Assembly: GCF_025612915.1 (NCBI RefSeq)
Contig: NC_069115.1
Location: 25,599,757-25,663,756, forward strand
From: Crassostrea angulata
Taxonomy: Eukaryota
Length of the DNA stretch: 64,000 nucleotides
Direction of reading: 5' to 3'
The position numbers and the translations under genes are program-made. Within the stretch, counting starts at the first letter, position 1. Each line of letters opens with the position of its first letter. Below are positions 11,995 to 61,266 of the stretch, in pieces. The notes below the pieces were generated by a model. The model was not told where the DNA came from and did no database searches. It saw nothing but the letters and a program-made list of their open reading frames with translations.

Positions 11995-12025
<31 letters not shown>

Positions 12026-25452: not shown

Positions 25453-25486
<34 letters not shown>

Positions 25487-30654: not shown

Positions 30655-30745
30655 ATTGTCGGATATTCTGGTGGTATCGAACCCATAACATAAAAACCCT
30701 AGATATATAAGGTTAGCTTGTGCCAGGTACTCTAACCACTGAGCC
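30655..30745 (-). tRNA. tRNA-like sequence (A box GCTCAGTGGTTAGAG, B box GGTTCGATACC); probable pseudo-tRNA or SINE head
   Basis: Reverse complement: TGGCTCAGTGGTTAGAGTACCTGGCACAAGCTAACC.....ATGGGTTCGATACCACC. The anticodon arm is atypical and the stems are weak. Confidence 0.3.
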
Positions 30746-31189
30746 ATTTCAGACACAACAAAGTGGGCTTTTTAAATATTATGTGTGACTAAGGTCACGA
30801 ACTACCGGACTTGTATTATTTTTTCAAAACGTTCAGTTGTTGGGATACAAAATGATATTTTTAATGTATAGTGGGTCATCTCTCCACGTTTTTGTTGATT
30901 GAAATCGGTTTGTTTTCCAATAGACCTTATTTAGACTATGAGAAAAATATGGAGCACAGACCCACTCTATAAAAGAAAATGCCTTGAAGTTCTAAAAAAA
31001 ATGGCAATATTTGCAGGTTTTGATACGTATACGCCTGTTTGAGTCAACATATTCCAAGTATTGAACATACCTACAGGTTAAAATCAATGATTCGTTAAAT
31101 ATATATTGTTTTTAATGATTTCTAAAGAAGCCATCAGATTTATTGATACTTTAATTTTTCAATGGCCTGTCCGACCGTGTATGGGTATT

Positions 31190-31520: not shown

Positions 31521-33539
31521 TTATGCCTTTTAATGTGAGGGTAAATATCGCCTGTGTTTGGGATTATTTTATCAAATCAAAAACCAGACAGTGATTGTTT
31601 ACCTGAGCAAAATGAGCAAAATTGATGCACTATAAAATAATATTCATTCCATTGGTAATTCAGTACGATCTCTACGTTATGCCAATACAAAATTCCTGTT
31701 TCCTGCCCCCTGACCAAAAATATTAGGGTAAGTAGGTAGAAAAAATATTACTTTTAAAAAATATTTTATTTTTAAAAACTTGGAACATATGTGTGATAAT
31801 AAGAGGAAGAAGTATACTAGTATTCACAGTGTACGATACGTTAATGAAGATTTATTATTTCCAAAGGTCTTTGTGTCATTGATACGTGTAATTGTATAGT
31901 CAAAAACAGGCAAAGAAAAAAATAGATTTTTTTAAAATTAAGAATAAAACTTATCTTATTTGCAAAATTTAATCTACATGTGTATTAATATATTTATACC
32001 TTTAATGGATAAATATTTCTTCACTGTGTTAGGTACATGACAATATTTATTAAATCAGTCTCTGTACGTCTGGGTATTTGGGGTATTAGCCCAACCCTTT
32101 GACCCACATACCTGTACTACCGTACATTATGTAGGTGTTCTGTTTAATTCTCAAAATAATGTAGAAAACAGTTTTATAATAATTTTAACATTTGTTGCAG
32201 AGTGATTAACTAATAACAGGTTATTAACTAACTGTAATATCCGGATTAAAAGTAATAAACATCTTAAAATTACATCGCACAGTATGTCATTGCATCATCA
32301 GTATTTATAACTTCTAGAGATAATTTAAGGTAGTCGCAAGTTACTAACCCGTGGTTCATTTATGCAGTAAAGATGTCTGTAGATTAGTTTACCGTCATAT
32401 ACTGAGTGAAGCAAAGTAATATTATTCATTTTAATTTTATCTGGTTTATTTCTTTCTTTAACGTATGGACTTTGTTTACTAATTGATATTAACTCCTCAT
32501 CTCTGACCTAAATTGTATTAAATATGAAACGTGATTGAGGAGTTATTTTAAAGGGACATGGTCACGATTTTGGTCAAAAATTAATTTTTCGATTTTGATG
32601 TTTACAATGCTTCAGTAAGTCATTTTTAATAGGCAACCAAAATTTGAGTGTCATTTGATGAGTAATAATTAAGCGAGTTAAAGAGCTTACAATTCTTCGC
32701 TATGTAAACAAAGCGTTTGTTTACATTTCGAATGTTGAAGTGAAAATTCCAGTTTAAAACCTAAAATAAAAATGTTAATCGTTAGGAACCGTTTATTTAT
32801 GCTTTAAATGAATAATAAGATAGACGAACCAGCTTTAAAAAGATTTTTACTGGTTTATTGAGCCTATGTAAACAAAAACAGGGCACGAGTCTTGTTTACA
32901 AGACGAAGAATTGTGAGCCCTGTATCTTGCTTAAAACTCAACGACTGGCACCCAAATTTCATTTAAATATTAGAAATGCATTCTGAAAGCATTGAGAATA
33001 ATAAAAACAGGAAAATAAAATTTGACCAAAATCATGATCATGCACCTTTAAAGAGAGGAGTTGATTTTATTATTAGGAGTAAATTATGCACTTGATTGTA
33101 TAAAGGGAAATTGACTTAAAAGTTCAGTGCGATTGGTATTATCTTGCAGAGTAGTAGGATAGCAATTCAAAGTCGAATTGCACAAGTTTTGAATGAATTG
33201 GATGTAAGTAATTGCTGTGTTTATAAATGTATTCCTTGGATTACTACCTTTATTAAAATTGTGAGCTCAATGCAGGCTTATTCTTTGAAAAGCGAAAGAA
33301 ATAATGATTTGAAAATGAAATGACATGCTCGGAAAAACGTTGAGAAAATAGAAAGTTAAAACGCTACATGAGGTTAATTTACACGATTGTGAACTCAGAA
33401 GACTGAGCACCTTTACTTCTTTTTCTGAGGAAATTCTGGCGAAGTTACCGATCAACATCATGATCACAAAAAAACTTTTAGGATCGGATGGTAAAAGATA
33501 GGGTCGGTCGGGCGACAGGAAACAGGAATAATTTTGAGC

Positions 33540-33770
33540 CTAATCATTATGGTTGATTAATGCAACGTGTTTTGTTAAGATGCTCAACATTTTCAGTCTA
33601 TAAACAGAGATTATTATCGCTGCTAGAAATATTAAGGTATATTTATTGTGAAAAATAAATTATGCTCTTTCTTTGTTTTAGTGCATTTTTCCTGTGTTTA
33701 TTGTTTACAATTTTCTATTTACTAACAGTATCTGAGAGTCAAGTTTCGAGGTATAGGCTATGAAAGGCAT
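33540..33770 (+). mobile_element. R1 3'-region fragment
   Basis: Matches 2950-3170, 11715-11830 and 27570-27800. Confidence 0.45.
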
Positions 33771-35452
33771 TTTAACTGTGGTGAAACCTGTCCCTAGACC
33801 CAGATTATTCAAACTAAGCCGAGTACAGTGAAACTAGAGACGACCTCGTTGCAAGCAACGATTAGGTCTTCCGTCGTAGCTGCATCTTACTTGTGACGTA
33901 ATACAAAAATTGATACTTACATGGTACAATATTAGATGTATCGATATAAACACTGAGTAAAAGAAATAAAATACTATACTACATGTATATATTAAGCAAA
34001 TAAAGATCTTTTAAAGATGTCTAAAGTTTGATTCGCCGCATGTTGTTTTTGTACGTGCATTTTATTTTGAGAAACTTATTTAATCATCATAATTGACTCA
34101 ATATAGACAGAATATGGACGACGATTCACGCAGTGGGTATGCCCGGTATGAAGGTAAAAAGACCAAACATTTTACTCGCATTTTTTATCGAACGCAAGCG
34201 CCAATATATGCGGAGATCCTGGAAATTTTACGGGGGGTATTTGAAGAATAATTTTGGAGGGGGGGCATGCGCGGATCAGAAAAATTTTCCGGGATGGGGG
34301 TTGAGTGTCTGACGGTTATTTGAGTTTGCTACGGGATGTATGAGGCATATTTTAGTAATTTTATAATGTAAATGTAATTGAAAGAAATTTTGCGGGGTTG
34401 GGGTGGGGTCTGGAACCCTTCTCTTCTCCATGTAGATCCGCACATGGGGAAGACCGATGCCGGTATTTTACCCATTTTTTATTTAATTAATCATTTTCAA
34501 AATTATCCGAATTCCAATATTACCTTTAAATGCAGTTAAAACTTGAAATACAAACCATTTAGTTTCGGTGAGTATTTGGCCGGCATGCGTCCGCGTACGA
34601 AAGAAATGGCAATATTCAAGAAATTTTGATGGACGATCTGGGTCTTAGGTCATCCATCCAATTCTTTTTCAGACTAAGAGCTACAGACCTGCAGTTAGAG
34701 ATTGTCAAACTCTTATTGATTAAGTCAATTTATTTTGTCTCAAGGAATCGGTTGTTTTTTTTTAATCAAAAAAGTTTTACTAAGAAATCGGGCACAATTT
34801 TCAATGTTAGCATTTTACAATTTAAAGGTCTAATAAAATTTTGTATAATATGATTCAAGTTTTCATGTTTCAAGATATTACTCTTCATTGCTATATCCGA
34901 AACATTGCATTGATAAAAAATTTACATCGAATTTTTTAAATTACAAAAGGATACGCAAAATGAACTTAGATTAACCGCTAACAAACAAGCATAAAGAGAG
35001 ACTGAGAAATATTTTTTTTTTACATCAAAATAATTCAAGAAAAAAATTCCAAGAAAAAATAAAAAACATTTCTTTATATGGGTTAATGAAAACGTTGATC
35101 ACCAAGGGGTTGTATGTCGTGCAAGCACCTACTTAATAGATTGTTACACGGGTCTACAACGATGACAAATATCGAAAAGGCAATATTGTGGGTGAAGGAT
35201 GAATGTGCCGGATGTCTCATATGGACAGAACTAAGACCTACCAAAGCCCTTTGGAAAATTTTATAACTCTTCTTGTCTGCCCAGATTCCTGCCAATTCTA
35301 CATCTATTGGCTTACTTTATTTCCCTATATAGCCCACTTTCATTTCAAATACAGGCAACCATAACCCATTTGGCCGATTAGTCCAAACCTGAATAATCTT
35401 CATAATAATATCAATCTATAACAAACAAACAAAAATATCCAGTAGTGTATTT

Positions 35453-35458
35453 TTTATT
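35453..35458 (-). terminator. RPL24: AATAAA polyadenylation signal of RPL24
   Basis: AATAAA on the minus strand about 17-22 nt downstream of the stop. Confidence 0.5.
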
Positions 35459-35474
35459 TTTTCCTTTTCCAGAA

Positions 35475-35564
35475 TCAACGTTTTCCTCCCACTCTAGGCT
35501 TGGTTGCTGCTCCGCCTTTCATTGTTGGTTTAACCTTGGGTTGAGAAGTTCTGCTGGCCTGAGT
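35475..35564 (-). CDS. RPL24: 60S ribosomal protein L24 (eL24), last coding exon (TQASRTSQPKVKPTMKGGAATKPRVGGKR*)
   Basis: Acceptor TATTGTTCTAG|ACT in phase 0 and a TGA stop. The C-terminal ...PRVGGKR is characteristic of eukaryotic eL24. Confidence 0.75.
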   Translation of the reverse strand, partial: TQASRTSQPKVKPTMKGGAATKPRVGGKR

Positions 35565-35789
35565 CTAGAACAATAAAAATAATTTTTCAAGAAATATAGT
35601 ACAAAAGGAAGAAATCTATTTTTCTACGGAAGCTCGCTGACCACATAAAAATTATACCTTATCTGGCAAATGCAACTGCAGCTACATGATTTATCTGGCA
35701 GCCACCATATAATCTACATGGTAGCAGCCACCAAATAAAATTGAGGTAATAGATTTGTATGGACTGTGCTATTCTTTCTAAAAACAATT

Positions 35790-35960
35790 CTCTGGTTCAG
35801 CTAGAACCATCCAAATGAGACTTAACTCCCACAAGGCTAATTTGCCCTGTCTCAGTGTGACCACAGCAGGGTTTAAACTAGCGCTCTTTCGGTTCCTGAC
35901 CTGAGTAGCTTCACGCCTATGACCATTAAACAATGTGCTCCACTGAGCTATAGGTATATG
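35790..35960 (-). mobile_element. tRNA-derived SINE-like element inside an RPL24 intron
   Basis: Reverse complement: CCTATAGCTCAGTGGAGCAC (A box) ... GCTAGTTTAAACCCTGCTGTGG (B-box-like), followed by a unique tail. Confidence 0.4.
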
Positions 35961-36629
35961 CTCCTTAAGATTAAAGTAACTTAAATATAATGAAATAATC
36001 AAAGGCATGAAGGGCCTTAACAGTTACAGGTTTGATACGACGATATTTAAATGTATTGAGTATGATTCCCTCCATTTCTTACGGAAACTTTAGTTTATAT
36101 AGAGCTCTATAGAAAGTAACTAGTTAATTTATAGCTCTATAGAAACTAACAGGACCGATATCAACATGCCTCGTTTATTGATTGGTCGAACCTTAGTGGC
36201 CGAAACAGACAAAATTGAAATCTAGATGCATCTTTTATCAATTGGTTGAAACCACCATTGTTTTAAGGAAAATCAAGGACTGCATGAAATAATTCTTATG
36301 ATGTCAATGTCAAACTCTAATATTAGACAATTTGTTTCTTTCTTTTATCCAACGACTGAAGTACATTAACAGTAAATTCATTTAACGATAGAAGACACAA
36401 AAATGCTTTAAATCAACATGCTCTCAAATATAAGAATACCTTTTATTCCTACGCATTATGAACTGGTGCAAAAATGTCACGACGTTAGAGTTTTTAGCCC
36501 TTCTTTTTTACTTGACTTAAAATGTCGCTGTTGCCATTTCAGTGTTTTCCCCAGAAAATTGTTGATGCATGGGGGGAAGTTTGGCAGAGTTGGTGTGCAG
36601 TGCTATGTAACAGCACCACAGCCATAATA

Positions 36630-37150
36630 CACATCATCTATGCAAGTTTGGTGAAGTTCATCTTTCCAAGTCAAGGGTTTCTGATCCGCTTCGCTCTACA
36701 TAAACCCTTGACCGAAAAAGACAACACATATGCAGGTTAACGATTACGCCATCTAGTGAGAGTACTAATTTTTAAACTTTTGTGACCTCTTGTTCTGACC
36801 AATCAGAGAATGCTTTATAAACAGAAACAGTATAGCAATATGGCTGCTCCCATGAACAAAATCAAATTCGTAGAAAATATGGATTCACTCAGACTAAAAA
36901 CCGATATCAGTATGTCAAATACTTACTATTTGTCTCTAATTTATTTGACAACGGTTCAACATTGATCAATTCACAATTAACATCATTATTGAAACATCGT
37001 TTCTTCTTGGATCATGCAAACTTGTATGACACCAACCAACGTGGGAGGTTTCTAATCAAGTCAAACTCTGCCTATTCGGTCAAGGGTTTATGTACAGCAG
37101 AGCGGATCAGAAACCCTTTACTTTGGAAGATGGGTGAAGTTAGGACCAGT
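36630..37150. mobile_element. MITE-like element with ~80-bp terminal inverted repeats, each arm itself a hairpin
   Basis: 36668-36720 (CCAAGTCAAGGGTTTCTGATCCGCTTCGCTCTACATAAACCCTTGACCGAA) is the reverse complement of 37068-37130. Each arm contains TCAAGGGTTT....AAACCCTTGA. Confidence 0.5.
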
Positions 37151-38565
37151 AATAACTAAGATATAATCATCAGATGGCACCTGCTCTAAAACTCAGCTTA
37201 AAGAAGAGGCCCATCGCTCACCTGAACAACAATAGGTATGATAAAATCAGCTTAAGTTGGTTTGTCCAGTGTGAGACAGCAGTGTGAGATTTTACTGTCT
37301 TACACTGTATTACTACGCCGCTTTAAAACGTAAACAAACGTTTTCTGCTGTAGGGAAATGCAAAATGATTGATTGAGATTATTCATTAAGTAATTGTTTT
37401 GCTTAGTTAATTACAATTTATCCTATTTTTATCGATAAAACTGTTGTGTGCTCTCATTTTGACTTGTACTATTTGAAACACGCGGAGGGATAAACCGAAA
37501 GTAATCAAAGCGAACTTTTTTTTATTTTCCAAAAATATCCAAGCTTCATATATCAGCTATTTTTAGTCCGCCTAATATGAAAGTACAAAGATGGCAGAAA
37601 ACCTCGTAAAGTTGTCAAAACTGTTAGGAAGCTAAATCTGGAGTGTGGACAACTTTTGGATTACTTGTTTATGAAAAAGTAGTGTATATGAGACTAAAGT
37701 AATTTTAAAATTGTGCAACGCTCATATATCAAAATAACTTTGGATATGCGGTAATACATTGACAGATTGAATAAATTTTTAACCCTTATTCATGTTTCCA
37801 TTTAGTTGCAATGTATCGTGATATGTATCGTATCGCATCTCATGCATCATGATATGTACCAAATCGGCTAAGTTCAGTATCGTCCCAGCCCTAGCTCTGA
37901 TGGACAATTCTAGTTGCTTGTGGTATGTCAACCCATAGTAGTAGATATGCAGTTATTATTGATATGAAACAATCTTTGCGTGATAAATGTGCGATATCTG
38001 CCAAAGTATCCTCCAAATTTTGCACTAGTTCTATTGTAAGTAATACGGGAAAATTTGTCCAAAAGTTGACTGCTTGTTTCGATGTCAATCGGATGACTTT
38101 AATTTCTTGCCCGCTTCAACTTTTACCTATGGGCAATCTTCTAACCCTCCAATACTACAAAATGTTTGCTTTTTTTTTTTTACCTTTACTAGATTAAAAT
38201 CCCAAAAATATAAAGTTGTTGATTTGAACTGCACACGGTAGCGATTTACTGAAAGTCGTACATAAAATTACCGGAAATGTCTATTGTCAAGTCCGATAAA
38301 AAATTCATGTTTTAACTTTACCTTTTTACGATAATTCAAAAAATATTGATTCAATTGACTTGGAAATCAAAAGAGTTTGTCCTTTTACCATGCCAAAGAA
38401 GTGAACAAAGTCTGATGAATATTCAATGGAGGGTTTTCTTGGAATTTTGCTTAAGAGCTGACAATGGACATACACACACGCGCGCGCGCAGCAGCGATGC
38501 TATATCCCCCTCGCAACAAGTTGCCCGAGGGGATAATTCAGTGATATTTATGATATTATTCATAC

Positions 38566-38617
38566 CTTTTGTTGTTTCTTTAGAGCATCTTTAGCTTTCT
38601 GTTTCTCTTTTGCAGCT
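38566..38617 (-). CDS. RPL24: RPL24 penultimate coding exon, 52 nt, encoding (R)AAKEKQKAKDALKKQQK
   Basis: Acceptor TTTAATTTTTAG|A and donor AAG|GTATGA. The phase is compatible with the flanking exons (AG + A gives Arg). It matches the Lys/Ala-rich eL24 segment AAKEAKKAKQ. Confidence 0.7.
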
Positions 38618-39844
38618 CTAAAAATTAAAGAACAGAAACCAATAAGTGAATTTCACAAGTCTAAGTCAACATCAAATATTTCTACAAATGTTATCAGTGT
38701 TTTAAACTCTTCAAAAAACTAGCTAGACTCTCAGGGCTGACAGCTAGTATAATTTGTCAGCCCTGTTAAAATCAACCAGCCCAAAGAAAAAAGTTGACAT
38801 TTGTTTATTTCTTTTCATTAAAATATCTGTTTTAATTTCTTTCTGTCATAAACTCGTTAGGTTTTTTATTGTTCCCAGCGAGATTCTTTGAGACTAACAA
38901 AATTTGACTAAAGTTTCTTCCGGACTTCTGAGAGTATATTTGACCTTGACTGGAACTCTTAGGCATGAGGTGTGAATGCATATGGAAATGAATTTAAAAA
39001 AAACAACAAGTTCATATATTGTGGGATTAATACCATTAAACGTTAGGAAACTAACATTCAATGCCGATAGGGAAATCAAACGATGTTCAAAGTAAAAAGT
39101 TGAAACTAACATTCTACGATGATAGGGAAATCAAACGATGTTCAAAATAAAAAGTTGAAGCAGGCAGTTGATTTAATTCAGCGTATTTCTATCATAACAA
39201 CCGACAGAAGTTGGGATTCAGAGAAGACGCGTGTCAAAATTTTTCAGTCTCAAAGAATCTCGCCAAGTTTACCTATATTATTTCATAGCATGGGAACTCT
39301 ACCTTGCCATGCTCACGTGTCAAGCATAGTCTACATAAATTTAACACTTGTCTTGACTGGTGTTAAATGACCATACAAGGAAAGCAATAGTATGACAAGA
39401 ATCAGTTAAAATTTTTGAAACCCTGATCCCGATTTTATATACACTTGGCCCTAAAAAAATATACACGTCCAGTCAGGCATTCGTACAAACAAATTTTTTA
39501 GCCCCTGCCAAAAGTAATGTGCCTCAGGCTGTCCGGCAGTTGGTTTTTTCAAACACTGCTGTTATGTTGTTTTTGTGTTTTTGATTTCAAGTCAATAAGA
39601 AATAGATCTAAGTTACTAATATTGAAGTTTTTCAGTGTTTCAAGTGTTTGATATTAACGTACTATGATCAGGGACCAACTTAGGCAGCGACTTGGTTGAA
39701 ATACTTGCTTTATAATCATTTTTTTTATGCTGGAATTTCCTCCAAAAGAGAAGCTACCAACGAAATTTGACCCCCATGAACCAAGAAAATTTTGGCTACC
39801 TTTCAACATTGACCCCCACAAATAAAAATTATTCCACTGTACGC

Positions 39845-42805
39845 TGATGTAAAGAGACTTATGGAACGCCATGGCTGCCTTATAGCATTAGACTATAGGT
39901 ACATTATGTCAAATTACCATTACATTATGTCAAAGTCCATTACGTGGTGTGAATATATCTTTACGCTAGGTCAAATCGTTATTACGTGATGTCAAAAGCA
40001 CGTTAGGTGAAGTAAACATGTCTTTACATTATGTCAACTTTTCATGTTGTGATGTAAAATCATCCTTACGTTATGCCAACATTGTACAACCAAAGGTCAA
40101 TACATCATGACATTATTTCGACACTGTATTACATGGGGCGAATGTATCCTTACATTATGTCAACATTTTATTACATGCTTTCAATATATCCTTACATTAT
40201 ATCAACACCGCAGTACGTATTGCGATTCTATCCTTACATTATGTCAACATTTTATTACATGACATCAATGCATTTTTACATTTTATCAACACTTTATTAC
40301 ATGGTGTAAATATATCGTTTTATTATGTCAAACCTTTATAACTTGATATCATAAGTTTATGACGTTATGTCTAAACTTAATAACGTGATGTAAATAAGTC
40401 TTTGCTGTAGGTCAGTTCTCTATTTCATGATGTACATGCTCCATTACTTTAAGGTGAAACATCATTTCGTTACACGGGGAAACATCTGCCTTTCTATATA
40501 CAAGGATACGGTAAGCTTACCCAAATGTATCCAGGGGTTATTGAAACTTTGTGGAACAGAACGGAACCAGTAAAGGGTCATCCAATGGGAAAATAGAAAT
40601 TTAAAAATAATGATTTATTTTGTTTTTATTCATTTCATTTCAAAATAAGATTGATCTTTAATTTTATTGTTTAAATTCGTTGTTTAAAGAAAAATATACA
40701 TAATTATATTACTTACTACTCTAATATTAACATATTACAGTATTTTCACGGCAGAACTTACTAACTAGTTTAAGCTAGCAAAAAATATTCTCTATTAGTT
40801 AGAGATTTAAAACAAACGAAACGCATTCCAAAGCATACCATTTTTAAAATTACAATGTCAGCAGTACTTGACTTATTTGTAAGATTCTGGTTCCGTTACG
40901 TTCCGCAATATATTATTACCCCTGTGGATATTGGTATTCAACGGAACAGAACGGAATGAGCGTAAATTTCCTTCTCAACCTATTTTCACGCCTATTCTAT
41001 ACTTACAACGAAAATATATGTAACATGATTATACATTTAACTGTTTACAAAAACCAACACTCATGCTGTCGAATTATTTCATTTAATTAAAATTTAGTAA
41101 GTTACATGTATGGGGCAAACCCTGAAGACGGTACCGATTCTACCAAAAGTGTTTGCCTTTCTTTATAATAATTCTGAAATCGGCGAATACAGTTCCCCTC
41201 TCTTATTTGTGTGCGTTTTTATTATGACATATTTCTGATTTATACCCTCTGTCTGAACAATTACCTAAAACAAACATTTCATAAAAACATCTATATCAAG
41301 ATGGAGAAGGTCTTTAAAGGGGTTAAAGATCTCTTGTAATTTATTTGTAGACTTTATTTCATATAAGTTATCAAGTGCCCTCTTGGATGAAAAGGAGAAA
41401 ATTTATTCAGAGGAACGTAGCGTACCCCCTCCACAAACACCATTCCCACCCCCTCTGCAGCAATAAGAAAAAAATCATTTTCATAGCATAATAATTTTGT
41501 AGCAGAACGGCCATACCTACATGTGTAGTTAGGGTCAGTATCCTTAATTTAAGATAGCAATAGCAACGTTTACTTTTAACTACTAAATACTTTATTTTAA
41601 CTACAAAATACTTTGAGACTAAATTTTAGAAAATTAAATATGAACTGGGTGTCTGTGCCACGACATACAGGCTTTGGAACGATAAAGAACCCTGACTGCT
41701 AAATGACTGAGTGTGTAGTAACGAACGTAATTTGAATATTATTGAAGTAAAAAAAGTATAAATCAAAAATAAAATTTTAAACCCCCCCCCCCCAAAAAAA
41801 AAACCCAATGAAGGGGTTATTTTTAGATTTTATATCCATTTCATTTTAAATATTCAAGGGCCGATGAGCACGAGAAAACTTGGATTTTAAGTAAATGTTC
41901 ATTCACTCTCGAGAAATTAAATTGTCAGCAACTAAGTCTTTTACAGCTTTCAGAAGACCTATATATAGGCCTATATATATTTTCATTCTTGTATGATTAA
42001 ATCACTGCTTCTTACTAGTATCTACTGTTGGGGTTTTTCTGGGTCCATTTTGTTGGGGTTTTTCTGGGTCCATTTGGGTAAATCGGCGTACCGTTTCTAT
42101 ATAGTAAATTTTGTATTTAAAACATGACAAATATACAAAGACCAAGGATTTCGTGTTTGTATAACGGAATGATGTTTCAACTTAAAGTAATAGAGCGTAT
42201 ACATCACGGAATAGAGAATTTGCCTAATGTAAAGACTTATTTACATCAGGTAATAAAGTTTAGACAAAAAGTCAAGACATTTTCGTATCAAGTAATGTAC
42301 TTTTGACATAAAGTGATAAAGTGTTGACATAATGAAAGGATGAGTTAACACCATGTATTAAGGTGTTGATAAAATGTAAAAACGCATTGATATCATGTAA
42401 TAAAATGTTGACATAATGTAAGGATAGAATCGCGATACGTACTGCGGTGTTGATATAATGTAAGGATATATTGAAAGCATGTAATAAAATGTTGACATAA
42501 TGTAAGGATACATTCGCCCCATGTAATACAGTGTCGAAATAATGTCATGATGTATTGACCTTTGGTTGTACAATGTTGGCATAACGTAAGGATGATTTTA
42601 CATCACAACATGAAAAGTTGACATAATGTAAAGACATGTTTACTTCACCTAACGTGCTTTTGACATCACGTAATAACGATTTGACCAAATGTAAAGATAT
42701 ATTCACACCACGTAATGGACTTTGACATAATGTAATGGTAATTTGACATAATGTACCTATAGTCTAATGCTATAAGGCAGCCATGGCGTTCCATAGAGAC
42801 TCATT
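39845..42805. mobile_element. Foldback-like element with ~700-bp inverted arms built from ~33-bp subrepeats around a ~1.6-kb spacer
   Basis: 39845-40510 is the reverse complement of 42100-42805 (outer ends AGAGACTTATGGAACGCCATGGCTGCC / GGCAGCCATGGCGTTCCATAGAGACTC). The arms are tandem TCCTTACATTATGTCAACATTTTATTACATG-type units. The ORFs 40073-40309 and 42358-42582 are mirror artefacts. Confidence 0.6.
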
Positions 42806-44065
42806 TATTTGTCATTTACATAACAAAATTACAAAACTTTTCATCTATAAAATGTAAGAATACATCAAATCAATTCAGTTTAACAAATTTGAAAAGTTTT
42901 TAAAAAATTTACAAAGCTGTTTTATTTTACTATCAATAGATATTAGAACCATTTTAACAAAAGCTTGGACTTTGGGTAGTTGGTGTCAAACTGCAATGTG
43001 ACATAGGCCTGTCTATTTCATTGTAGGCCACTCAGCCATTGCTCTTTGAAATCAACAAGATTTGTCTGGCTTTTGAGCTAAGACTACTCAATCAGTGCAT
43101 ATTTCACCTGAAGCCAGCATCATTTTTAACTTGTTTTGACGAAAGAAACAGATAGTTATGTCCTACTGAAAGTCCAAGGCCTTGTTAAGGCGAGAGAAAT
43201 TTAATTTTTAGTTTTACGGATCCGCCAACCCAATTTATTCGATTTTGTAAAAAAAAAAAAATGAAAAAAAAATTGTATCTTCGGATATTTTTCCGGAATT
43301 TTCAAGTTTTACAGATATTGGTTTTAAAATTACTTTATTTTATTTGAAATCTGCAAAACGGTTGACAAAGAGAGCTTTTCAAATCAATTGTAAGCGTCTC
43401 TATAACATGGAGTATTTAAGATTGAGGTCAGCCATGCATGGTTTGGCTTAAAAGTTTTTATGAAAAGCAAAGAAAATGTTATCCTGAACAAGTTTAGTAA
43501 GGTTAATACCAATACCAAGTACACAGTGGATAGTGGACAAATTAAACTTAATCATATAAGTTCAAGCAAATAATATGTAATTTTGATTAATAAAAGTTTG
43601 CCCACTGGTTTTTTTTTCCCCCTCCTCCGACCCAAATTTTTTACAACAAAATCCGTAAAACTAAAAATTAAATTTCTCTCGCCTAAAATGGTTCTAGCAT
43701 TGTGCGGGTGTCCAATAATGGAAGTCTCCTTGATTTTTTAAACTTCCAATAAAATTCTGCTAGAGAATAAACAACTTAATATACGTAAAAGTGATAAAAT
43801 TAAATTAAAAAAATTTAGTTTTAAAATTATTTGTTATAAAATTATTCAACACAGACACTGGAATAAGAACTTTGTTGGTACATGATCAAATCTTTTGAGA
43901 AGCCCTTTAAGATTCTAGGATTTGATCATGTGACCAACCAAGTTCATATCTCAGTGAACTTTATAACTTGCTGCTTATTTCTTAGATAAATCCCATCAGC
44001 ATTCCAATAATTTTAATTTTTTATTCATGCCAGTATATAAAATCAAATCCTTGAAATTAACTAAC

Positions 44066-44313
44066 CTGATGGCCTGTTCTCTCTGTGCCTTCCTCACTTC
44101 TGGTTTCTGGTTTCGCTTTGCCTGAATTTCAGCAAGAGAAAGCCCAGTGACAGCACGTGTAAACTTGGTAGTCCTGCGAGTTCTCTTTTTAGCAATCTCT
44201 TCAAGATTGCCTTTCTTGTGCTTTCTTCTGTATAGCACTGTCCAATTAATCTCGCGTGGATTCCTCTTCATTTTGTGTGAAGCCTCGCATTTTCCATTGA
44301 GGAACTGGAAAAC
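44066..44313 (-). CDS. RPL24: RPL24 internal coding exon ([83 protein letters not shown])
   Basis: Near-identical to conserved eL24 ([36 protein letters not shown]...[17 protein letters not shown]). Acceptor TTGTAG|GTT and donor AG|GTTAGT. Confidence 0.85.
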
Positions 44314-47300
44314 CTACAACATGATGGTTACTATTATATATGAGAATTAGCACTCACAGAATTTTTAGTTGTTGAGCAAATAGAAAATTGAATAGATTCC
44401 TACTTTGACTCATCTTTTATTCAACATAAATATAAACTATCATTTTGAAACCCTCCCTTTCCTTGTATGTGTGTATGTATTTTTTTATTTATTTTTTTTC
44501 ATTATTTTCTTTATTACCTTTATATGCCCAAGAGGGCCCAGTATTAGAAATAAAGTATCTATCTATCTATCATCATAAAATAGAGAAAAATGGGCAACAA
44601 TACTCAATTGGTGGACAGTTCTAATACATCTCATTTTTTTAACATAAAACTTTTTAAAATAATCTTAAACTTGCAAAATATCTAATATTTTCAATGATTT
44701 ATCTCAGCAACAAAGCATTTTCTTTAATATGTTCTAAAACTGACAGGGCTCTACATAACTTATTTTCTCATTCATTCAGACAAATGGCCTCAAAAAGCTG
44801 CTATGTAGCTTAAATATATCAAAATCCATCAAAGTACTGTCTACCGTGATCTTAGTATGACATGTTTTTGTCTAATTTAATTTTTACTAATACTTCCGGT
44901 TTTTCTTATATCAGTTGCATATATAGTAATGCATAGGCCTTATATAGTAATAAGAAAGACCTTTTAACATCCAGATTTTACTCTGAAACACCAAAGAAAA
45001 CAATATATATCCGGAGGTGTCACTTAACTCTTAGGCTGCTGCTTTAACTTTCGCAAAGATGGCTGCCACTGCTGAATTAATTATTCACAATTAATGGTAA
45101 TTGACCATAGAGTTTAAAATAATATATCACAGCAACTATATATTTATTGCTACAGTTACCAAACTTTATATATATTTAAAATGCGAGAGAAAATATTGAA
45201 GATTTCAATGCAATGCTCATATTCCTCATTTATCTTGTATATATCAATCTAGGTATGTTCAAATGTAAAAATCAATTAAAATTAATGCCTTTCATTGTTC
45301 CATTCTTCAATTGTCATATTTGAGAACCCAAATGACTGTAAAAGTTCTTTAGTATATCAATAAGTCATACATTGTGAGATTCAATTTTATTCGTTTAATT
45401 TTGAAAATTGGGTAAACAATTACTGAAAAATAAAGAAATACATGAAACACTTTATCAATGCTTTTTTTTTTATGTTGTTCTGGTTTACATTCTCAGACTG
45501 CACAATCTCTCGGTAGAGATGTTGATCAATTAAACAACAATTTCCATAAACATAATATCATTAAAAATTTAATTTAGACACGATAAAGGTTCATAATCCT
45601 CCATTTAAGTGTTTAATTTTTCCTCTCTGGTGAATGGGATGGGATATTCAATGGCGGTGGATCAACACGCGACTAGCCTACCTCCAGATCGGCATCAAAT
45701 TCTCGGTCATTTCTTGGCACAAAGTTCATTAAAGACACATAAATCAATAAATTAACATCTCCTAAGTTATGTACTGCAGGATTAAATCCATCAACAGTAT
45801 TTTCGTCTTTGCTAACCCCGTGAAAAAAGTTCCAAAACTTGTGTCTCGTGGCTTCACTCTACTTTTGCCACTTTGGCTACAAATTCAAAACATTCTTTGG
45901 AAGTTTACTGCTCTATAGCCTTTATTTTAAACTCTGGAAAACTCTAGAAACCTTCCGAACACATCAATTGACCAATCATAGCCATCGTGTTTTTGCTCAA
46001 AGCGAGGCTTGTGGAAACCTTAGATAACTCGCTCTCGGAAAAACGACCATAGTCGCGCATAGCAGTGGCAGACCTGAAATTTCGGTGCGACAATTGTCAG
46101 GTGAGGCAGCTAAGGGTTAACAGGTGCACAGGTAATCCTCTAGTGTTGTTACGATAGTCGCCGAATATCGAAAAATCATCGCTGAAGGCAGCAGGTCGGT
46201 GACAATCGATAGTAAGTCGTTATCATTGATAGTCATGTGACAGATATCCTTTTATTATCCAATATCCATTAAAAGACTAAAGTATTATTATACAGTGACC
46301 AACCTAGAGGACGACTTGCTTTGTGATCGGCAACTTTGCCGGAGTTTCCTCCGAAAGAGAAGTTGAAGTCGCCCTGTATGCAGAGTTTACGATTGTGCTA
46401 ATTAATTAAACTCAAAGGCAATAAAATGATTATCATCAAATTCATAAGACGTTCTCACATGCTCAGTTAAACCCTTTTGTGATTAGGAACTTGCGACTGT
46501 CTTATCTTCATGGGTTATAAAAACAGGTGATACTGTGCATTGAAAATTACAACTGATGTTTATTACTTTTCATGCTGACATTACTATTAGTTTGAAACTT
46601 GTAATTAGTTAATAATACTGCCAAATTATTGCTAAAATAATTATAAAACCATTTGTTTACAGTTGTCTACAAAATTAAACAGAATCGCTACACAACGGTT
46701 GTAATTGGGTCAAAGGGTTGCACTAATGCCTCCAAAATACACAGAAGTACAAGGACTGATTTTTATTTGTCATTTAACTCACAGAATTACAAAACATTTA
46801 ATGTATAAAATGTGTGAATGTATCAGATCAATTAAATTTAATTTTTTGTCAAATTAACTTAATCAAAAGTTATTCATAGAGTAAATGGTATCAGCTATTA
46901 TGGGATATCCTGTACAAATGCCCTTTTAAAACAAAAGTATGATTGAGTAGCTATACTCTATCCCGAGCTTTTGCTTCCACCACTCTTCGCTTGATATTTC
47001 GAAAATAATAAATACCTTTGTGTTTAAACTACGTTCATCCACTAATAGAAAAATGGGGTGCGTCGATTTACCCAAATGGAACGTAAAATGACCCAAATAA
47101 ACCCAAATGGAAACTCAATTGGAAACAAATGGAAATTAAATGGCATAATTGAAGATTTTATGTAATAATTTCAATTATATGATGAAGAATCAATAAATAT
47201 GAATATTCTAAAACAACAATTTTCTTGTGTTGTTAATGATTGTTTATTGATATATGAATTTATATATAACTGTTAATATAACTATTGATATTTAATCATT

Positions 47301-49689
47301 TCAAGATACCTTTTTAATCATAACAATATAACTCAAATATTTATTTTCGATATTGGAAAATAAAGTACCATAGTTTTCTTCTAAATATAGATGTATATAA
47401 GTTAGTATTGTTTGCTTATACATGTACAGTATGTGGTTCATTTTCCATGCATCAAATTTTGAAGTACTTTTTGATTTCTAAAATAAATCGATGTTTGGAC
47501 TGAATTTTTTTAAGGTCATATGAAATTCTAAGTAACTATTATAATCATTTGAAAATACATATTTTATTTTTAAAACATAAAAATCTTTTTTTGGTCGGAA
47601 ATTATAATTTATATGTTTAATTTTTCAATTTATTCTTTTGGCTTTCAATATTTATTAGGATGGCCTCAACATGGCAAGAGCTTGACAACGTTATACTACT
47701 TATAACGGCTAACAATCCAATAAATAGATTCGAAAAAAAATATCTAAATCATGTATTTAAATCATGAAACTAATTGATAAGGCTACATTATCAAATTCTT
47801 TTTTCCATTTGGTCAGAAATTTTTCAATTAAAAAAACTCAATATATTTAAAATAATAATTGAAATTATTATATATACAATCTTCAATTATGCCATTCAAT
47901 TTCCATTTGTTTCCATTTGGGTTCATTTGGGTCCATTTGGGTCATTTTACGTTCCATTTGGGTAAATCGATGCACCAGAAAAATGTCTAGATTTTCTGTT
48001 TTGAAATGCCCCTTCTATCGCTTCAGGTTTCAATACATATCCCGAAATAGAAAGTCTACGGGGATTTTCATTGCATCAGCCATTAGTACTTCCGAATAGA
48101 GAAAAGATGCAAACATTTCCCATTATATATCTCCGTAAGAAAATTGTTTTCATTCCTATACACTTTTATGAGTGAAAATGGATAATTTGTCAATGAAGAT
48201 ATCTTGAATATTTTCCATTTCATCGATTTCAACTGTACTTCTTTCACAGGTATGTGTATTTTCATTACAAATCATCAAAAAGTGATGGAAGCAATAACTT
48301 GGGACAGACTATAAATAAATTCAGGTAGGTAAACAAAGCTATGTATTAAGCTACGTAGCTAATCTAGTAATTGTACTGGACCTGCTGACACACATTTTAC
48401 TCCAATAATGGCGTGAGATTTTTCACATAATAAAAATAACCATAAATTTCACATTGTTCTGAAACTGGAAACAAAATCAGCTCTTACCCTTCCGTCAACT
48501 TTTACGATACGTTTTCCGTGTCCTGGATATATTTTATACCCACTGTAAGAGCACAGTTCGATCCTTCATGAAAAATATAAGTTAAAACATGTAAATCATA
48601 CAATGATTGCTTACATTAACAATTTAATTCTTCGCGATGTTCCCAAAAAATATCAGAATTTTACAGATTATTGTCGGTATACAATATTTTCACTCACTTC
48701 ATGTTTGAGACCGGAAGTTGAAAGACCGAAAGTAGGCTTTCGGGATACCTCGCTCGATTCTTACGTATGTAGCGAAATTACTCGAGGTTTCCCGAAAGTG
48801 AAAAATTGCACCATGTTACATAGACCATGTAGACTGGCCCTCTGTCTCTATCGTATATCAGACAGGCATTGACAGTCTACATGTTACACGAATGAGGGTG
48901 CGTCGATTTACCCAAATGGACCCAAATGGAACGTAAAATGACCCAAATGGACCCAAATGGAGCACAAATGGACCCAAATGGAATCACAAATGGAAATAGA
49001 ATGGCATAATTGAAGATTTTATTTAATAATTTCAATCATTATTTTTAATAAATGAGTTTTTTTTATTGAAAATTTAAAAAAAAAACATTGAACAACATTT
49101 TTCTTATAATTCTACATCAAATATTTACAGCACTTGGTACCACTTAACTAATATATAAACGGTGTGACCGTTGGACCGAGCGCAGATTTCACACTGTTTA
49201 TATGAAACGCACACAGTAGGGTTCGCCTGGTTGCCTACTCAAATCATTAGCCAAAGTTTACTAAACGTCGCGTGCTCTGTCTACATTATGACGTCATTTT
49301 TCAGACGTAAAACGTACAACGTTTTGTCTTCGGAAATAGCCGAAGAGAGTTACGTTTATTATTCCGAACTTTTTTTAACTTCTTTTTTCATTGTTTATCG
49401 ATTTAATTCATATAAATGCCGCGGTAATAAAATTGAATACTTTATTCAGTATCTAAAAGATCAGTTCCTTGATGTTAATGTTTTTATTTTCCATCTGATA
49501 ATTTGATAAGACATACATACACCTAGTCGTGTTTCTTGATTAAAGCACTATTGGAACTTATCTGGTGTCCTCTTTTATTTCTTTTAATTAAAATTACCTT
49601 CCATTGAAACACTGGAACATTTTAATTGAGTTTAGGGGCAATAAACATCAATAAGTACCAGTCAATCAATGATCGAACTAACTTTTTAA

Positions 49690-51280
49690 AAACAAAAAGG
49701 CTGCCAATATGGTAGCAAGACTTTTAGGCCCCAAGATGTTTAGGCCCTTCATTGATAAGACGCTTAGGCCCCAACATGTTTAGGCCCCAAGATGTTTAGG
49801 CACCACTCTACATTTTTCTAAGTTAATTATAATTTTCATTTTATTTTTTAAATGAATAATGGTTTAGGCACCAGCATACATTTGTATAAGTTAATTATGA
49901 TTTACATTTTATTTTTTAAATGAATAAGGGTTTAGGCACCAGCATACATTTGTAAAAGTTAATTATAATTTACATTTTATTATTTAAAACTTCATTTACT
50001 TTAAAAATTATAAAGAAGTATAATCTGCATCTTATGCATAATTTATTATTTTTTAAATATCATATTATTTTGTCACATCATATTATTTTCTATAATTAAT
50101 TTTCTAATTAGAGATCAAAAAAACGGTTAAGACTTTCATTTACTTTGTGTATGACATGAATTAAATTGTTAAAACAACACCCCCACCGTATCATGCTCCC
50201 TCTGTAGATAGGTGCTAATTAGGAGAAGATAATGAAGAGATCCTCTAGTAATAAAATGAGGGTTTCACACCTCACTTTGGAAGTAAAATGAAGAGACGGG
50301 TCTCCAAAAGAAGACAGGCCAAATACATGTTAAGCTTCATTGGCAGAAAAATTACATAATTTGGGGAGATATCCTTTAATTGTACAAATATGATCACAGA
50401 AATAATATTTCACTCATGAATACTTTTAATGTAGAAAAACTTGTCAATATTTATTAAGAAAATTTTCAAAGTCTGTTCTTCCAGAAACCAACTTTAACAA
50501 CCTATTGTATTGTGATTTTAACCTCTTTTTTTCATTATTACTCCTACTGTACATGTGATCCTTGACTGTGTTCGTGTACATTTGTATATACTGATTTTGA
50601 ACCTCAAATACCAGTGAACTGGTCTTGAGCAAATAAAGAATTGAATTGAACTTGTATTTGGGTAATAAGTAGGTGAATTCTTTTGGGATATATAAGGGTT
50701 CTTAAAAATATTACGTATAAATCAGTTGCCATAAATAAGCTTACTGAACAATTTTATGACATTCAAGTGTTGTATAATTCCAATAATAGAAAAAAATACA
50801 ATAATTTGTTTCCTTTTCTTGAAATATCAATAATGAAAAACTTCCCCTTATATAACATTTGTTCGTTTCTTTGTGATGAAAGTATGATTTGATCACGGTA
50901 TTAACTGATTTAAAGCACGGACACATAACCATGCTGGATGAAACTTTCATTGATAACGTGTGCATGCAAGTTTATAGCATAATGTTTTTCGTGATTAAAG
51001 TTTTTCAAGAACTTGTATATAAAGTAAACAACGCCATGTTTGCGTAACGATTGTTAGTTTACTACAAATTAAAGTAAATTGCATTTATTGGCTCCAAAGT
51101 GCTTAAAAGCCATGTTCTTTCAACTATCAGTTATTATTATAAACAACAGGTGCCTAAACATCTTGGGGCCTAAACATCTTGGGGCCTAAACATCTTACCT
51201 GGGGCCTAACCGTCTTGGGGCCTAAACATGTTGGGGCCTAAACGTCTGCAATTCGCCAATATGGCGGCGCCCAGGGCTGG
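49690..51280. mobile_element. TIR-bounded element; the ~110-bp TIRs contain (GGCCCCAAGATGTTTA)n subrepeats
   Basis: 49690-49810 (GCCAATATGGTAGC..TTTAGGCCCCAAGATGTTTAGGCCC...) is the reverse complement of 51140-51275 (...GGGCCTAAACATCTTGGGGCCTAAAC..GCCAATATGGCGGC). The interior carries a copy of family D. Confidence 0.5.
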
Positions 51281-51394
51281 AAGAAATTATTTTGGGCCTT
51301 AGTACCCCTGATTCAACTTTCATTTTTCACTGATTTTCTTATATATACGTGTTACCATTAATCCTCGCTTCGCGAGGCGGGCTTCGCCCGCCTC

Positions 51395-51880
51395 TCGCTG
51401 CGCTCGGTATTAATAAAATCATATATTAACATTGTAACTACATCGTTGTAGAAACAGAAATAAGATTGTATTTAGAAACTGTTCCTATCGTGTTAAACAC
51501 GACGCCCTACCAGGGCCCGGACTCAGTTACCTCAAACAATCTTATTCTAAAACAATTTCATTAATAAGTTTTTATAGGTACCACTTTACTATTAATAACT
51601 CATATATTAACATTGTAACTACATCGTTGTACAAACAGAAATATCAGACTGTATTTAGAAACTGTTCCTATCGTGTTAAACACGACGCTCTACCAGGGCC
51701 CGGACTCAGTTACCTCAAACAATCTTACTCAAGAACAATTATATTAATAAGTTCTTTTATGAAAAAAGTCATAAATTGGTGTTTTTATTATTATAATGAT
51801 TTTTCACAAGTCACTATTTGGTTTATCACATTCGGTGGTATTTGGTTTGTCACATTTGATGTCACATATGATGGTTGAAT
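51395..51880. repeat. R6 ~190-bp tandem repeat, about 2.5 units; a further copy at 53080-53340
   Basis: ...ATTAACATTGTAACTACATCGTTGTA.AAACAGAAATA..CTGTTCCTATCGTGTTAAACACGACGC.CTACCAGGGCCCGGACTCAGTTACCTCAAACAATCTTA... repeated. Confidence 0.6.
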
Positions 51881-53821
51881 CAGATATTTCCATATGATTA
51901 TATATCAACAGTTATATTAATAGTTATATATAAATTCATATATCAATAAAGAATCATTAACAACACAAGAAAATGTCGTTTTAGAATTTATATTTATTGA
52001 TTATTCATCATGTAATTGAAATTATTAAATAAAATCTACGATTATGCCATTCAATTTCCATTTGTTTCCATTTGTGATTCCATTTGGGTCCATTTGTTTC
52101 CATTTGGGTTTCCATTTGTTTCCATTTGGGCTCCATTTGGGTGCGTCGATTTACCCAAATGGACCCAAATGGAACGTAAAATGACCAAAATGGAAACAAA
52201 TGGAAACAAATGGAAATTGAATGGCATAATTGAAGATTTTATTTAAAAATTTCAATCATTATTTTTAATAAATGAGTTTTTTATTGAAAATTTTCAACAA
52301 CAAAAAACATTGAACAACAATTTTTGACCAAATCGAAAAAGAATTAGATAATGTAGCCTTATAAATTTGTTTCACGATTTAAATGCATGATTTAATTTTT
52401 TTTAATCTATTTATGGGATTGTTTGCCGTTATAAGTAGTATAACGCTGTCCAGCTCTTGCCACGTGGAGGCCATAATTTTGAAATAAAAAATATTTAAAG
52501 CCAAAAGAACAAATTGAAATAATTACAAATAAAAATATTTAAAGTCAAAAGAACGAATTGAAAAATTAAACGTAAACATTATAGGGCCTAATTTCCGAGC
52601 AGAATATTAAAAAAAAAAATTTTTTTGTTTAAAAATAAAATATGTATGTTAAAATAATTAATGGTTACTTAGAATTTCATAAGACCTTAAAAAAAAATTA
52701 GCCCAAAAATCGATTTGAAAATCAAAAACTTAATTCAAAAATTGATGCATGAAAAATGAACCACATACTTTACATGTATAAGCAAACAAAAAACATAATA
52801 TCAAAACATGCACTACAGGATTGGTTTGAGCTACTATTTGAATGATTAAATGCACTATTAAAAGAAACAACAGAACAGCACTGTACATGTATTTACAGCC
52901 CCTAAATTATTTAACATGCATAACAATAATTTGCCATCTAACTAACTTATATACATTTTTACATCTATATTTAGAAGACAACTATTATTTATGCATATTT
53001 CCCTAGATAGAATAACATTTTTCTTATAATTCTACATCAAATATTTACAGCACTTGGTACCATTAAACTATTAATAAATCATATATTAATATTGTAACTA
53101 CATCGTTGTACAAACAGAAATATCAGACTGTATTAAATTAAGAAACTGTTCCTATCGTGTTAAACACGACGCCCTACCAGGGCCCGGACTCAGTTACCTC
53201 AAACAATCTTACTCAAGAACAATTATATTAATAAGTTCTTTTATGAAAAAAGTCATAAATTGGTGTTTTTATTATTATAATGATTTTTCACAAGTCACTA
53301 TTTGGTTTGTCACATTTGATGTCACATTTTATGGTTGAGTAAATCATCAATGTGGACACGGCGTTGAACAGGCAATCCCCATCACCGCTTGCCCTGACGG
53401 CAGTGTCGTTGGCATCTGGGAAGTAAAACTGGTGCAACAATCTGTCCGATATTTGATCTAGAACCATGTTGGCAATTGTTGCTGGTTCATTGTGGATTTA
53501 TTTAACCAATATCGAAAATAAATATTTGAATTATATTGTTATAATTTAAAGATATTTCGATATGATTATATATCAACAGTTTTATTTATAGTTATATATA
53601 AATTCATATATCAATAAAAAATCATTAACAACACAAGAAAATGTCGTTTTAGAATTTATATTTATTGATTATTCATCAAATAATGATTGAAATTATTAAA
53701 TAAAATCTTCAATTATGCCATTCAATTTCCATTTGTTTCCATTTGTGATTCCATTTGGGTTCATTTGTTTCCATTTGGGCTCCATTTGGGTCAATTTGGG
53801 TCATTTTACGTTCCATTTGGG

Positions 53822-55335: not shown

Positions 55336-55339
55336 TGGT

Positions 55340-61218: not shown

Positions 61219-61266
61219 GCAAACAGCAAACGTAAATTTTACAAAGATCTAAATTAAGTGTCTTAC

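Follow-up and report, generated by a model that had tools for sequence, protein, structure and literature searches.

In bivalves, the introns of housekeeping genes are known to be swollen by non-autonomous DNA transposons, with exon positions remaining fixed and intron lengths differing by kilobases between haplotypes and genera. The gene for the ribosomal protein eL24 (RPL24) has a coding span of 10.4 kb in Ostrea edulis and 7.6–8.9 kb in Mytilus galloprovincialis, but the C. virginica span is far smaller, with ~294 nt for intron 2 and ~1300 nt for intron 3. An initial reading of the 64,000-nt stretch of DNA analysed here (the window) had treated its long ribosomal-protein gene as unusual, an expectation that fails among bivalves given these coding spans. 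In all of the bivalve eL24 genes compared, exon 1 ends after ATGAA. The five-exon layout found in the window is that of the O. edulis (XP_048768410.1) and M. galloprovincialis genes, and the first four exons are likewise arranged in C. virginica (XP_022291395.1, XP_078331540.1), the last exon of which lies outside the fetched flank; look-ups for the eL24 loci of scallop and Mya gave no records. The window protein shares 93–98% identity with the other oyster proteins and 67–73% with those of Mytilus. It is 79.5% identical to human RPL24 over residues 28–110, while its lysine/alanine-rich C-terminal tail (~125–150) has diverged from human RPL24 and from the eL24 of solved 80S structures, as it has among animals generally.

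The locus extends on the minus strand from ~48724 to ~35438, and it is almost certainly a complete, functional, single-promoter RPL24 gene encoding the cytoplasmic large-subunit ribosomal protein eL24 of Magallana (Crassostrea) gigas or its close relative C. angulata. When the five exons are joined in phase at their gt/ag borders, they give an intact open reading frame of 156 aa in which no frameshift or stop was seen. The product is residue-for-residue identical to RefSeq XP_034331477.1 (60S ribosomal protein L24, Crassostrea/Magallana gigas), and also to XP_052710034.1 (C. angulata) and UniRef100_A0A8W8JIL6. The same protein is annotated on the M. gigas chromosome record OY970753.1 (locus L001 of our comparison set); the eL24 locus is an ordinary, annotated gene that was already known.

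Residues 1–64 match positions 1–64 of the 66 in the Pfam profile Ribosomal_L24e (PF01246; E 6.7e-31, 106.8 bits against a cut-off of 27), which, together with the RefSeq identity, bears out the first-pass annotation in naming the gene eL24. Residues 1–156 align over their full length with solved eL24 chains, with E values from 1e-61 to 1e-66 among the matches listed; the best of these is 9eho_W (E 1.4e-66), and others include 7oya_W1 and 11iq_24. Of the 60 chains listed, 56 go under the names eL24, L24/L24e/RPL24 or TRASH domain-containing protein; two of the others bear the name uL24, another is called ‘large ribosomal subunit protein eL24z’ and the last ‘eL24’ alone. A protein search with the window product returned 1996 homologues, the best named matches being bivalve eL24 proteins. 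An alignment with seven bivalve eL24 sequences contains 86 invariant columns, all of which are kept in the window protein, and the family-invariant residues retained include C6 and the C-terminal PRVGGKR with which the product ends. Judged by its sequence, the gene can be assigned to the eL24 family, and its product is predicted to be incorporated into the 60S subunit.

The first-pass annotation had placed three minus-strand exons at 44313–44066, 38617–38566 and 35564–35475, and had reported that the N-terminal exons were not found within 44314–64000. The three exons were placed exactly, with in-phase joins and ag|...|gt borders, and both missing exons are present in the window, 4.2 kb upstream of exon 3 (coding parts at 48702–48698 and 48563–48488). 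A tblastn search of the window with an eL24 protein, which the annotation had proposed, recovered the second of them: a human RPL24 query gave residues 2–28 at 48565–48485 (E 2e-9). Exon 1 (ATGAA) and the exact borders of exon 2 were obtained by reading the sequence. The earlier search by eye had overlooked a 76-nt exon and an exon with 5 coding nucleotides.

Exon 1 (48698–48728, minus strand) comprises a short 5′ UTR and ATGAA, with the ATG at 48702–48700, and is followed by the donor gtgagt; 48728, the first base of the conserved block CGGTCTTTCAACTTCCGGT, serves as a provisional 5′ end. Intron 1 (48564–48697, 134 nt, gt...ag, phase 2) splits codon 2, and exon 2 (48488–48563, 76 nt) begins by completing this K codon. 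After intron 2 (44314–48487, 4174 nt) comes exon 3 (44066–44313, 248 nt), the encoded stretch of which ends in REQAI(R). Introns 3 (38618–44065) and 4 (35565–38565) measure 5448 and 3001 nt, in agreement with the 5.4 and 3.0 kb first given for them, and are separated by exon 4 (38566–38617, 52 nt), which encodes (R)AAKEKQKAKDALKKQQK. Exon 5 (35438–35564) holds the last 29 codons, the TGA stop (35477–35475), a 3′ UTR of ~37 nt and a poly(A) site at ~35439/35438. The AATAAA that had been noticed 17–22 nt past the stop was found at 35458–35453. The coding sequence of 471 nt is spread over a coding span of 13,228 nt, the introns adding up to 12.8 kb, and canonical GT-AG splicing of the five exons would yield an mRNA of ~0.53 kb.

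Transcripts of the 5′-TOP type, typical of ribosomal-protein genes, start at a C that is followed by 4–15 uninterrupted pyrimidines. In the window, the pyrimidine run CTTTC at 48724–48720 sits inside the exon 1 block CGGTCTTTCAACTTCCGGT, which does not vary between M. gigas, O. edulis and C. virginica. From this we infer that transcription starts at the C at 48724, giving a leader of ~22 nt that would be of the 5′-TOP type, as in other ribosomal-protein mRNAs, with a putative ETS-type motif ACTTCCGG immediately downstream of the start.

Transcript evidence covers three of the four splice junctions as well as the poly(A) site, and the gene is expressed. A polyadenylated RNA-seq contig (L002) spans junctions 2/3, 3/4 and 4/5 at 100% identity, the last two being those of the originally proposed exons. 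Its nt 493–576 correspond to exon 2 (98.8% identity), nt 574–822 to exon 3, nt 821–874 to exon 4 and nt 873–1001 to exon 5 (100% each), after which the contig runs into a poly(A) tail where the genome shows GGATATTTTTG. Ahead of its exon 2 sequence, the contig agrees with exon 1 over just 11 nt, which leaves the exon 1/2 junction and the transcription start without a clean transcript match, and it does not carry the CTTTC leader.

The 5′ part of this contig raises the question of whether the gene, though complete, is normally transcribed with a different leader, distant or trans-joined, in place of 48728–48703; variants of this explanation invoke an alternative first exon outside the window, or a gene for an EF-hand-like protein that is fused to eL24 or joined to it by read-through. 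In its favour, nt 1–488 of the contig, upstream of AAACATGAAG and exon 2, are absent from both the window and the OY970753.1 locus, and an open frame within them runs for 139 codons and includes two D-x-D/N-x-D/N-G-C stretches resembling, by eye only, EF-hand calcium-binding loops. The 139-aa frame had no exact look-up match in the protein collection. However, the case for another leader comes from a single short-read contig, and De Bruijn assembly drops leaders shorter than k and can then extend into rare chimeric reads when an mRNA is very abundant. The 139-codon frame closes 70 nt short of the eL24 start codon and would give no fusion protein. Moreover, the genomic leader and ATGAA|gt are unchanged across three genera, and the CDS start annotated in OY970753.1 maps to the same ATG (48702–48700). 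We consider it very unlikely that another leader is the normal one, and the foreign 5′ part of the contig is probably an assembly chimera.

The gene with its own 5′ exon, as read from the genome, contains multi-kilobase introns that are rich in transposable elements, as had been proposed from the sequence. MITEs are elements of less than ~1 kb with terminal inverted repeats (TIRs), a target-site duplication (TSD), no coding capacity and several copies. Two such elements lie in the introns. That of intron 2 (47057–47976, 920 bp) has TIRs of ~108 nt that are 91–94% complementary and a 9-bp TSD, AGAAAAATG, with related copies or fragments at 48891–49159 and 51.4–53.8 kb. That of intron 4, earlier outlined at 36630–37150, occupies 36659–37132 (474 bp) and has 58-nt TIRs (90% complementary) and a 9-bp TSD, GGTGAAGTT, at 36650–36658 and 37133–37141; no second copy was found among the compared sequences.

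Foldback-type elements have very long inverted ends composed of tandem subrepeats and a flanking target-site duplication. The element of intron 3 that had been delimited at 39845–42805 is of this type: it spans 39860–42795 (2936 bp), with 509-nt arms that are 95% complementary, 42/84-bp tandem subrepeats in both arms and a 6-bp duplication, GAGACT, and it contains no ORF of at least 90 aa and no transposase. Intron 3 harbours two further inverted-repeat elements, one at 43185–43687 (503 bp; 37-nt ends, 97% complementary; ambiguous target-site duplication) and a small one at 38878–39263 (386 bp; 31-nt ends, 90% complementary; no clear duplication). A search of the introns for transposase ORFs of at least 90 aa turned up only the read-through of exon 3 and one ORF of 90 aa, which bears no transposon signature. 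The intronic elements resemble the non-autonomous DNA transposons of oysters in being short and ORF-less with inverted ends, two of them having clean 9-bp TSDs. The 12.8 kb of introns is most probably non-coding filler that has accumulated as non-autonomous DNA transposons (MITEs and the foldback-type element) inserted in a lineage-specific manner.

The intron lengths of the compared genes are unrelated, intron 2 measuring 4174 nt in the window against ~5265 nt in O. edulis, ~294 nt in C. virginica and 2.1–3.5 kb in Mytilus; introns 3 and 4 of O. edulis are ~3360 and ~1160 nt long. The length of intron 1 is about the same in O. edulis and C. virginica. A sensitive blastn comparison of the gene region with the O. 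edulis and C. virginica loci aligned the exons only, plus intron 1 in C. virginica.

These comparisons bear on a second explanation, in which the long introns have been kept for the functional non-coding genes that they carry, such as snoRNAs, rather than being transposon filler. snoRNAs are common in the ribosomal-protein introns of other animals, which provides a general precedent, and a weak match to the C/D-box snoR117 is present at 44572–44637 on the gene strand (E 0.8; 22.2 bits, where the gathering score is 42). Yet Rfam at the gathering score yielded 0 matches in the whole window, permissive Rfam searches of 35000–49500 and 35400–40000 (E up to 10) returned chance-level matches only, no intronic block other than the alignable intron 1 of C. 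virginica is shared with O. edulis or C. virginica, and intron 2 has shrunk in C. virginica to the few hundred nucleotides given above. Intronic snoRNAs or structured RNAs, and conserved intronic elements, were accordingly rejected on the Rfam and blastn results, and retention of the introns for such genes is highly improbable.

The weakest alternative, raised in the first-pass annotation, is that the locus is a partial, 5′-truncated or retro-disrupted copy with a functional eL24 gene elsewhere, for which the initially missing 5′ exons and the lack of clean transcript evidence at the exon 1/2 junction could be cited, but it has a negligible chance of being right, since both 5′ exons are there with canonical splice sites, the intact five-exon ORF encodes exactly the eL24 that RefSeq lists for C. 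gigas and for C. angulata, and a poly(A)-tailed transcript matches the exons of the locus at 100%, 3′ UTR included. Retrocopies lack introns and show flanking duplications and a poly(A) tract in the genome; frameshifts or stops are often present as well. A processed pseudogene was rejected, as the ORF is intact and the positions of the four introns recur in other bivalves (O. edulis, C. virginica and Mytilus). The identity of the five-exon product with RefSeq, the transcript support and the support for exon 1 together indicate a complete, expressed gene, and one that is a sound anchor, placing the window in M. gigas or C. angulata, although it matters little beyond such bookkeeping.

The window and OY970753.1 loci are collinear and 99.5–99.8% identical, but the coding span is 16,404 nt in OY970753.1 compared to 13,228 nt in the window, a difference attributed to three insertions in OY970753.1, for which the window carries empty sites: one of 460 bp lies upstream of the ATG, and introns 2 and 3 hold others of 994 and 2173 bp. 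At 48817–48820, OY970753.1 has a 460-bp MITE with 17-nt ends, GGTATCACACCGGTAAT, and the duplication TGTA; at 48340–48350, it has a 994-bp element with ends of at least 48 nt and a 9-bp duplication, CTTAATACA; and at 38788–38793, it has an extra 2173 bp with no clean duplication. Introns 2 and 3 are accordingly ~5166 and ~7627 nt long in OY970753.1, and intron 4 has the same length as in the window. Filled and empty sites are seen between the two assemblies for two further elements, and some of the transposons still segregate as presence/absence variants.

The 460-bp MITE, a 95.5%-identical copy of which is found at 26569–27029 of the window, lies ~116 bp upstream of the eL24 ATG and ~94 bp upstream of the putative transcription start. 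We give only a small chance to the idea that it is a segregating cis-regulatory variant of eL24 expression, or that the leader in the RNA-seq contig is a real alternative or trans-joined one. If true, the MITE would change how an essential, dosage-sensitive ribosomal-protein gene is expressed, and this polymorphic, promoter-proximal element is the only item at the locus with a potential biological consequence. In O. edulis and C. virginica, a divergent LRR/fn3 gene is located 0.4–0.75 kb upstream of eL24; tblastx of the flanks from these two species against the window for synteny of this gene gave a dispersed repeat only.

tRNA-derived SINEs possess a tRNA-like head with A and B boxes ~30–60 nt apart, a body and a tail, and occur in many dispersed copies. 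The introns had been thought to hold one, and the candidate tRNA-like head at 35870–35955 (minus strand) has an exact A box, TAGCTCAGTGG, at 35950–35940, with a degenerate B box (the best candidate having 3 mismatches). This assignment was not upheld by ARAGORN, Rfam or the B-box scan: ARAGORN at default settings found no tRNA in 33000–51000, Rfam gave no tRNA-clan match better than E 2.8, a B-box scan inside the gene had no match, and the A- and B-box scans were at chance level overall. Relaxed ARAGORN runs produced 26–193 calls, which were discarded as obviously spurious. No second copy of the candidate was found in the window or in the comparison loci L001–L006.

Pearl and Cg_HINE are Helentron derivatives of oysters (PMC7492417). 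The elements in the eL24 introns carry no 160–170-bp central repeats that would mark them as Pearl or HINE, their likeness to oyster transposons being one of structure and not of sequence comparison with named families. Elsewhere in the window, tandem arrays of 2.0–6.2 copies have units of 161–166 bp, a length typical of the Cg_HINE central-repeat monomer.

A tblastn search of the window with human RPL24 matched exon 3 of an eL24 gene (E = 1.8e-33) and, for residues 2-28, positions 48565-48485 on the minus strand (E = 2.2e-9). The latter match lies within 44314-64000, where the first-pass annotation had found no 5' exons, and both were read there from the sequence: exon 2 at 48563-48488 (ag/GATCGAAC...GGAAGG/gtaaga) and, 134 nt upstream of it, exon 1 (ATG at 48702-48700, ending ...ggtctcaaacATGAA/gtgagt). 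The three minus-strand exons already recognized have canonical borders throughout, and their joined translation is exactly the peptide first reported. The translation of exon 3 (44313-44066, tag/GTTTTCC...ATCAG/gttagt) ends ...REQAI, the 52-nt exon 4 (tag/AGCTGC...AAAAG/gtatga) reads correctly only when preceded by the last two bases of exon 3, and exon 5 (35564-35475 to the stop, tag/ACTCAGG) translates to TQASRTSQPKVKPTMKGGAATKPRVGGKR before the stop codon. An AATAAA is present at 35458-35453, 17-22 nt past the TGA. The five exons total 471 nt in frame and encode a 156-aa protein.

This protein matches Pfam Ribosomal_L24e (E = 6.7e-31) and aligns over its full length with the eL24 chains of solved 80S ribosomes (best E = 1.4e-66). 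Among its 1996 homologues, the top named ones are bivalve eL24 proteins, and it is 93% identical to that of O. edulis and, over the shared part, 98% identical to that of C. virginica. By exact-sequence look-up, it is XP_034331477.1 (60S ribosomal protein L24, Crassostrea gigas), XP_052710034.1 (C. angulata) and UniRef100_A0A8W8JIL6 (Magallana gigas), and the identical protein is annotated on the M. gigas chromosome record OY970753.1 (locus L001). The window is accordingly assigned to the Pacific oyster or its sister taxon. The proposed identity as eL24 is correct; the gene is already annotated and is nothing new in kind.

A 1027-nt contig from RNA-seq run SRR11285539 (L002), the sole transcript contig recorded for this protein, encodes it without introns. 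Its identity to the window is 98.8% in exon 2 and 100% in exons 3-5, and each match crosses the predicted junctions, including 44066/38617 and 38566/35564, both supported at 100%, so that a test of the gene by transcript support comes out in its favour. The poly(A) tail directly follows ...AATAAAAAATACACTACTGG, placing the poly(A) site at ~35439/35438.

The match of this contig to exon 1 is limited to AAACATGAAG, and support for the exon 1/exon 2 junction is weaker than for the others. The 488 nt upstream (L002:1-488) have no match in the window or L001, and contain a 139-codon frame, EF-hand-like by eye (DRDNNGCVSYAEF and DMDHDGCLDDIE), that stops 70 nt short of the eL24 ATG. The 5' part is probably an assembly or library chimera, since the leader, at 22 nt, falls below the assembler's k; that it is an alternative leader of the eL24 mRNA is the less likely reading. 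Independently of the contig, the exon 1 model is supported by the annotated CDS start in L001, which falls on the same ATG, by a canonical donor site, and by a block, CGGTCTTTCAACTTCCGGT..CAA.CATGAAGT, that does not vary among M. gigas, O. edulis and C. virginica, all sequence upstream of it being unalignable. Within the block are a CTTTC pyrimidine run, of the type that begins 5'-TOP ribosomal-protein mRNAs, and ACTTCCGG, which we take to be an ETS/GABP-type motif; from ribosomal-protein promoters in general, the two are predicted to act as a 5'-TOP start and an ETS/GABP-type site, respectively. With both 5' exons in the window and five exons in frame, the earlier suggestion of a partial or retro-disrupted copy falls away, and the central uncertainty is settled against a pseudogene: the locus is a complete, expressed, already annotated eL24 gene.

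Both the exon coordinates and the transposon picture of the first-pass annotation hold. The MITE it described is a 474-bp element at 36659-37132 whose inverted ends measure 58 nt and whose 9-bp duplication, GGTGAAGTT, is perfect, and its foldback element spans 2936 bp (39860-42795), with 509-nt arms, 95% complementary and holding 42/84-bp tandem subrepeats, and a GAGACT duplication on both flanks. A 920-bp MITE at 47057-47976 (ends of ~108 nt, 9-bp duplication AGAAAAATG) has relatives directly upstream of the promoter (48891-49159) and in the 51-54 kb region, and smaller inverted-repeat elements lie at 43185-43687 and 38878-39263. None of these five intronic elements contains an ORF of ≥90 aa; together they make up at least 5219 of the 12,757 intron bases.

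Comparison with L001 revealed three filled-versus-empty sites, indicating that the description of the introns as TE-laden is right and that some insertions are young enough to be polymorphic. L001 carries a 994-bp element in intron 2 (long inverted ends, 9-bp duplication), a 2173-bp insertion in intron 3, and, ~116 bp upstream of the eL24 ATG, a 460-bp MITE (L001:9423-9882; 17-nt ends GGTATCACACCGGTAAT, duplication TGTA) whose site is empty at window 48817-48820; window 26569-27029 holds a copy with 95.5% identity. The promoter region of this housekeeping gene thus varies by the presence or absence of the 460-bp MITE; this MITE and the odd 5' end of the transcript contig are the only items of mild interest at the locus.

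Introns 1-4 measure 134, 4174, 5448 and 3001 nt in the window (coding span 13,228 nt), ~134, ~5166, ~7627 and ~3001 nt in M. gigas L001 (16,404 nt), and ~135, ~5265, ~3360 and ~1160 nt in O. edulis (10,393 nt). In two M. galloprovincialis assemblies they are ~1.5, 2.1-3.5, 0.35-2.4 and 1.0-3.0 kb (8872 and 7636 nt). O. edulis and Mytilus share the five-exon layout, and the first four exons are seen in C. virginica (introns 1-3 of ~134, ~294 and ~1300 nt; intron 4 not recovered within the flank retrieved). An eL24 gene of several kilobases is thus unexceptional among bivalves, with exon positions fixed and intron size labile. The gene region matches the O. edulis and C. virginica loci on exons alone, plus intron 1 in C. 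virginica. In an annotated 133-aa eL24 isoform of C. virginica (XP_078331540.1), exon 4 reads into intron 4 (L004:5063-5137, ending ...KKQQKVNILIQ).

The tRNA-derived SINE reported in the introns was not confirmed: the best candidate inside the gene has an exact A box (35950-35940, gene strand) and a degenerate B box, with no ARAGORN or Rfam match and no second copy found. A better tRNA-like head lies downstream of eL24 at 30670-30750 on the minus strand, with exact A (TGGCTCAGTGG, 30746-30736) and B (GGTTCGATACC, 30683-30673) boxes 52 nt apart; it is possibly a SINE or tRNA relic, and within the stretch scanned ARAGORN at its defaults does not call it. Rfam returned zero matches at gathering score across the whole window, and only chance-level matches at permissive thresholds (the best, snoR117, scoring 22 bits where the gathering score is 42). 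Given this, and no conserved intronic sequence relative to O. edulis and C. virginica, intron-hosted snoRNAs find no support.

In O. edulis (L003:1-2618) and C. virginica (L004:1-2246), a gene for a ~1600-aa LRR and fn3 protein lies head-to-head with eL24, 0.4-0.75 kb from its ATG. This flank has no match in the 15 kb upstream of the window gene (48800-64000); in M. gigas L001, the first gene called upstream of eL24 is 8.4 kb away on the same strand. Window 53928-55196 holds a tandem array with 16.6 copies of a 65-nt unit and a 131-nt higher-order period, followed by 3 inverted copies (54991-55196); an inverted repeat, GGGTTCAAAATATT...ATATTTTGAACCC, lies within the unit. Its alignment with L001 is out of register, and copy number may therefore differ between assemblies. 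Further arrays, with 2.0-6.2 copies of 161-166-bp and 140-bp units, occur at 2415-2744, 8135-8756, 12075-13099 and 19957-20481. Monomers of these lengths have been reported in C. gigas from the central repeats of the non-autonomous Helentrons Cg_HINE / Pearl (PMC7492417); the likeness is one of unit length. Several copies of a dispersed ~200-bp repeat, present on both strands (7500-7670, 10200-10400, 11850-12000, 22870-23040 and 25330-25495), adjoin the 165-bp arrays. The same repeat occurs in the C. virginica sequence upstream of eL24 (L004:200-420), indicating a family common to Crassostrea and Magallana.
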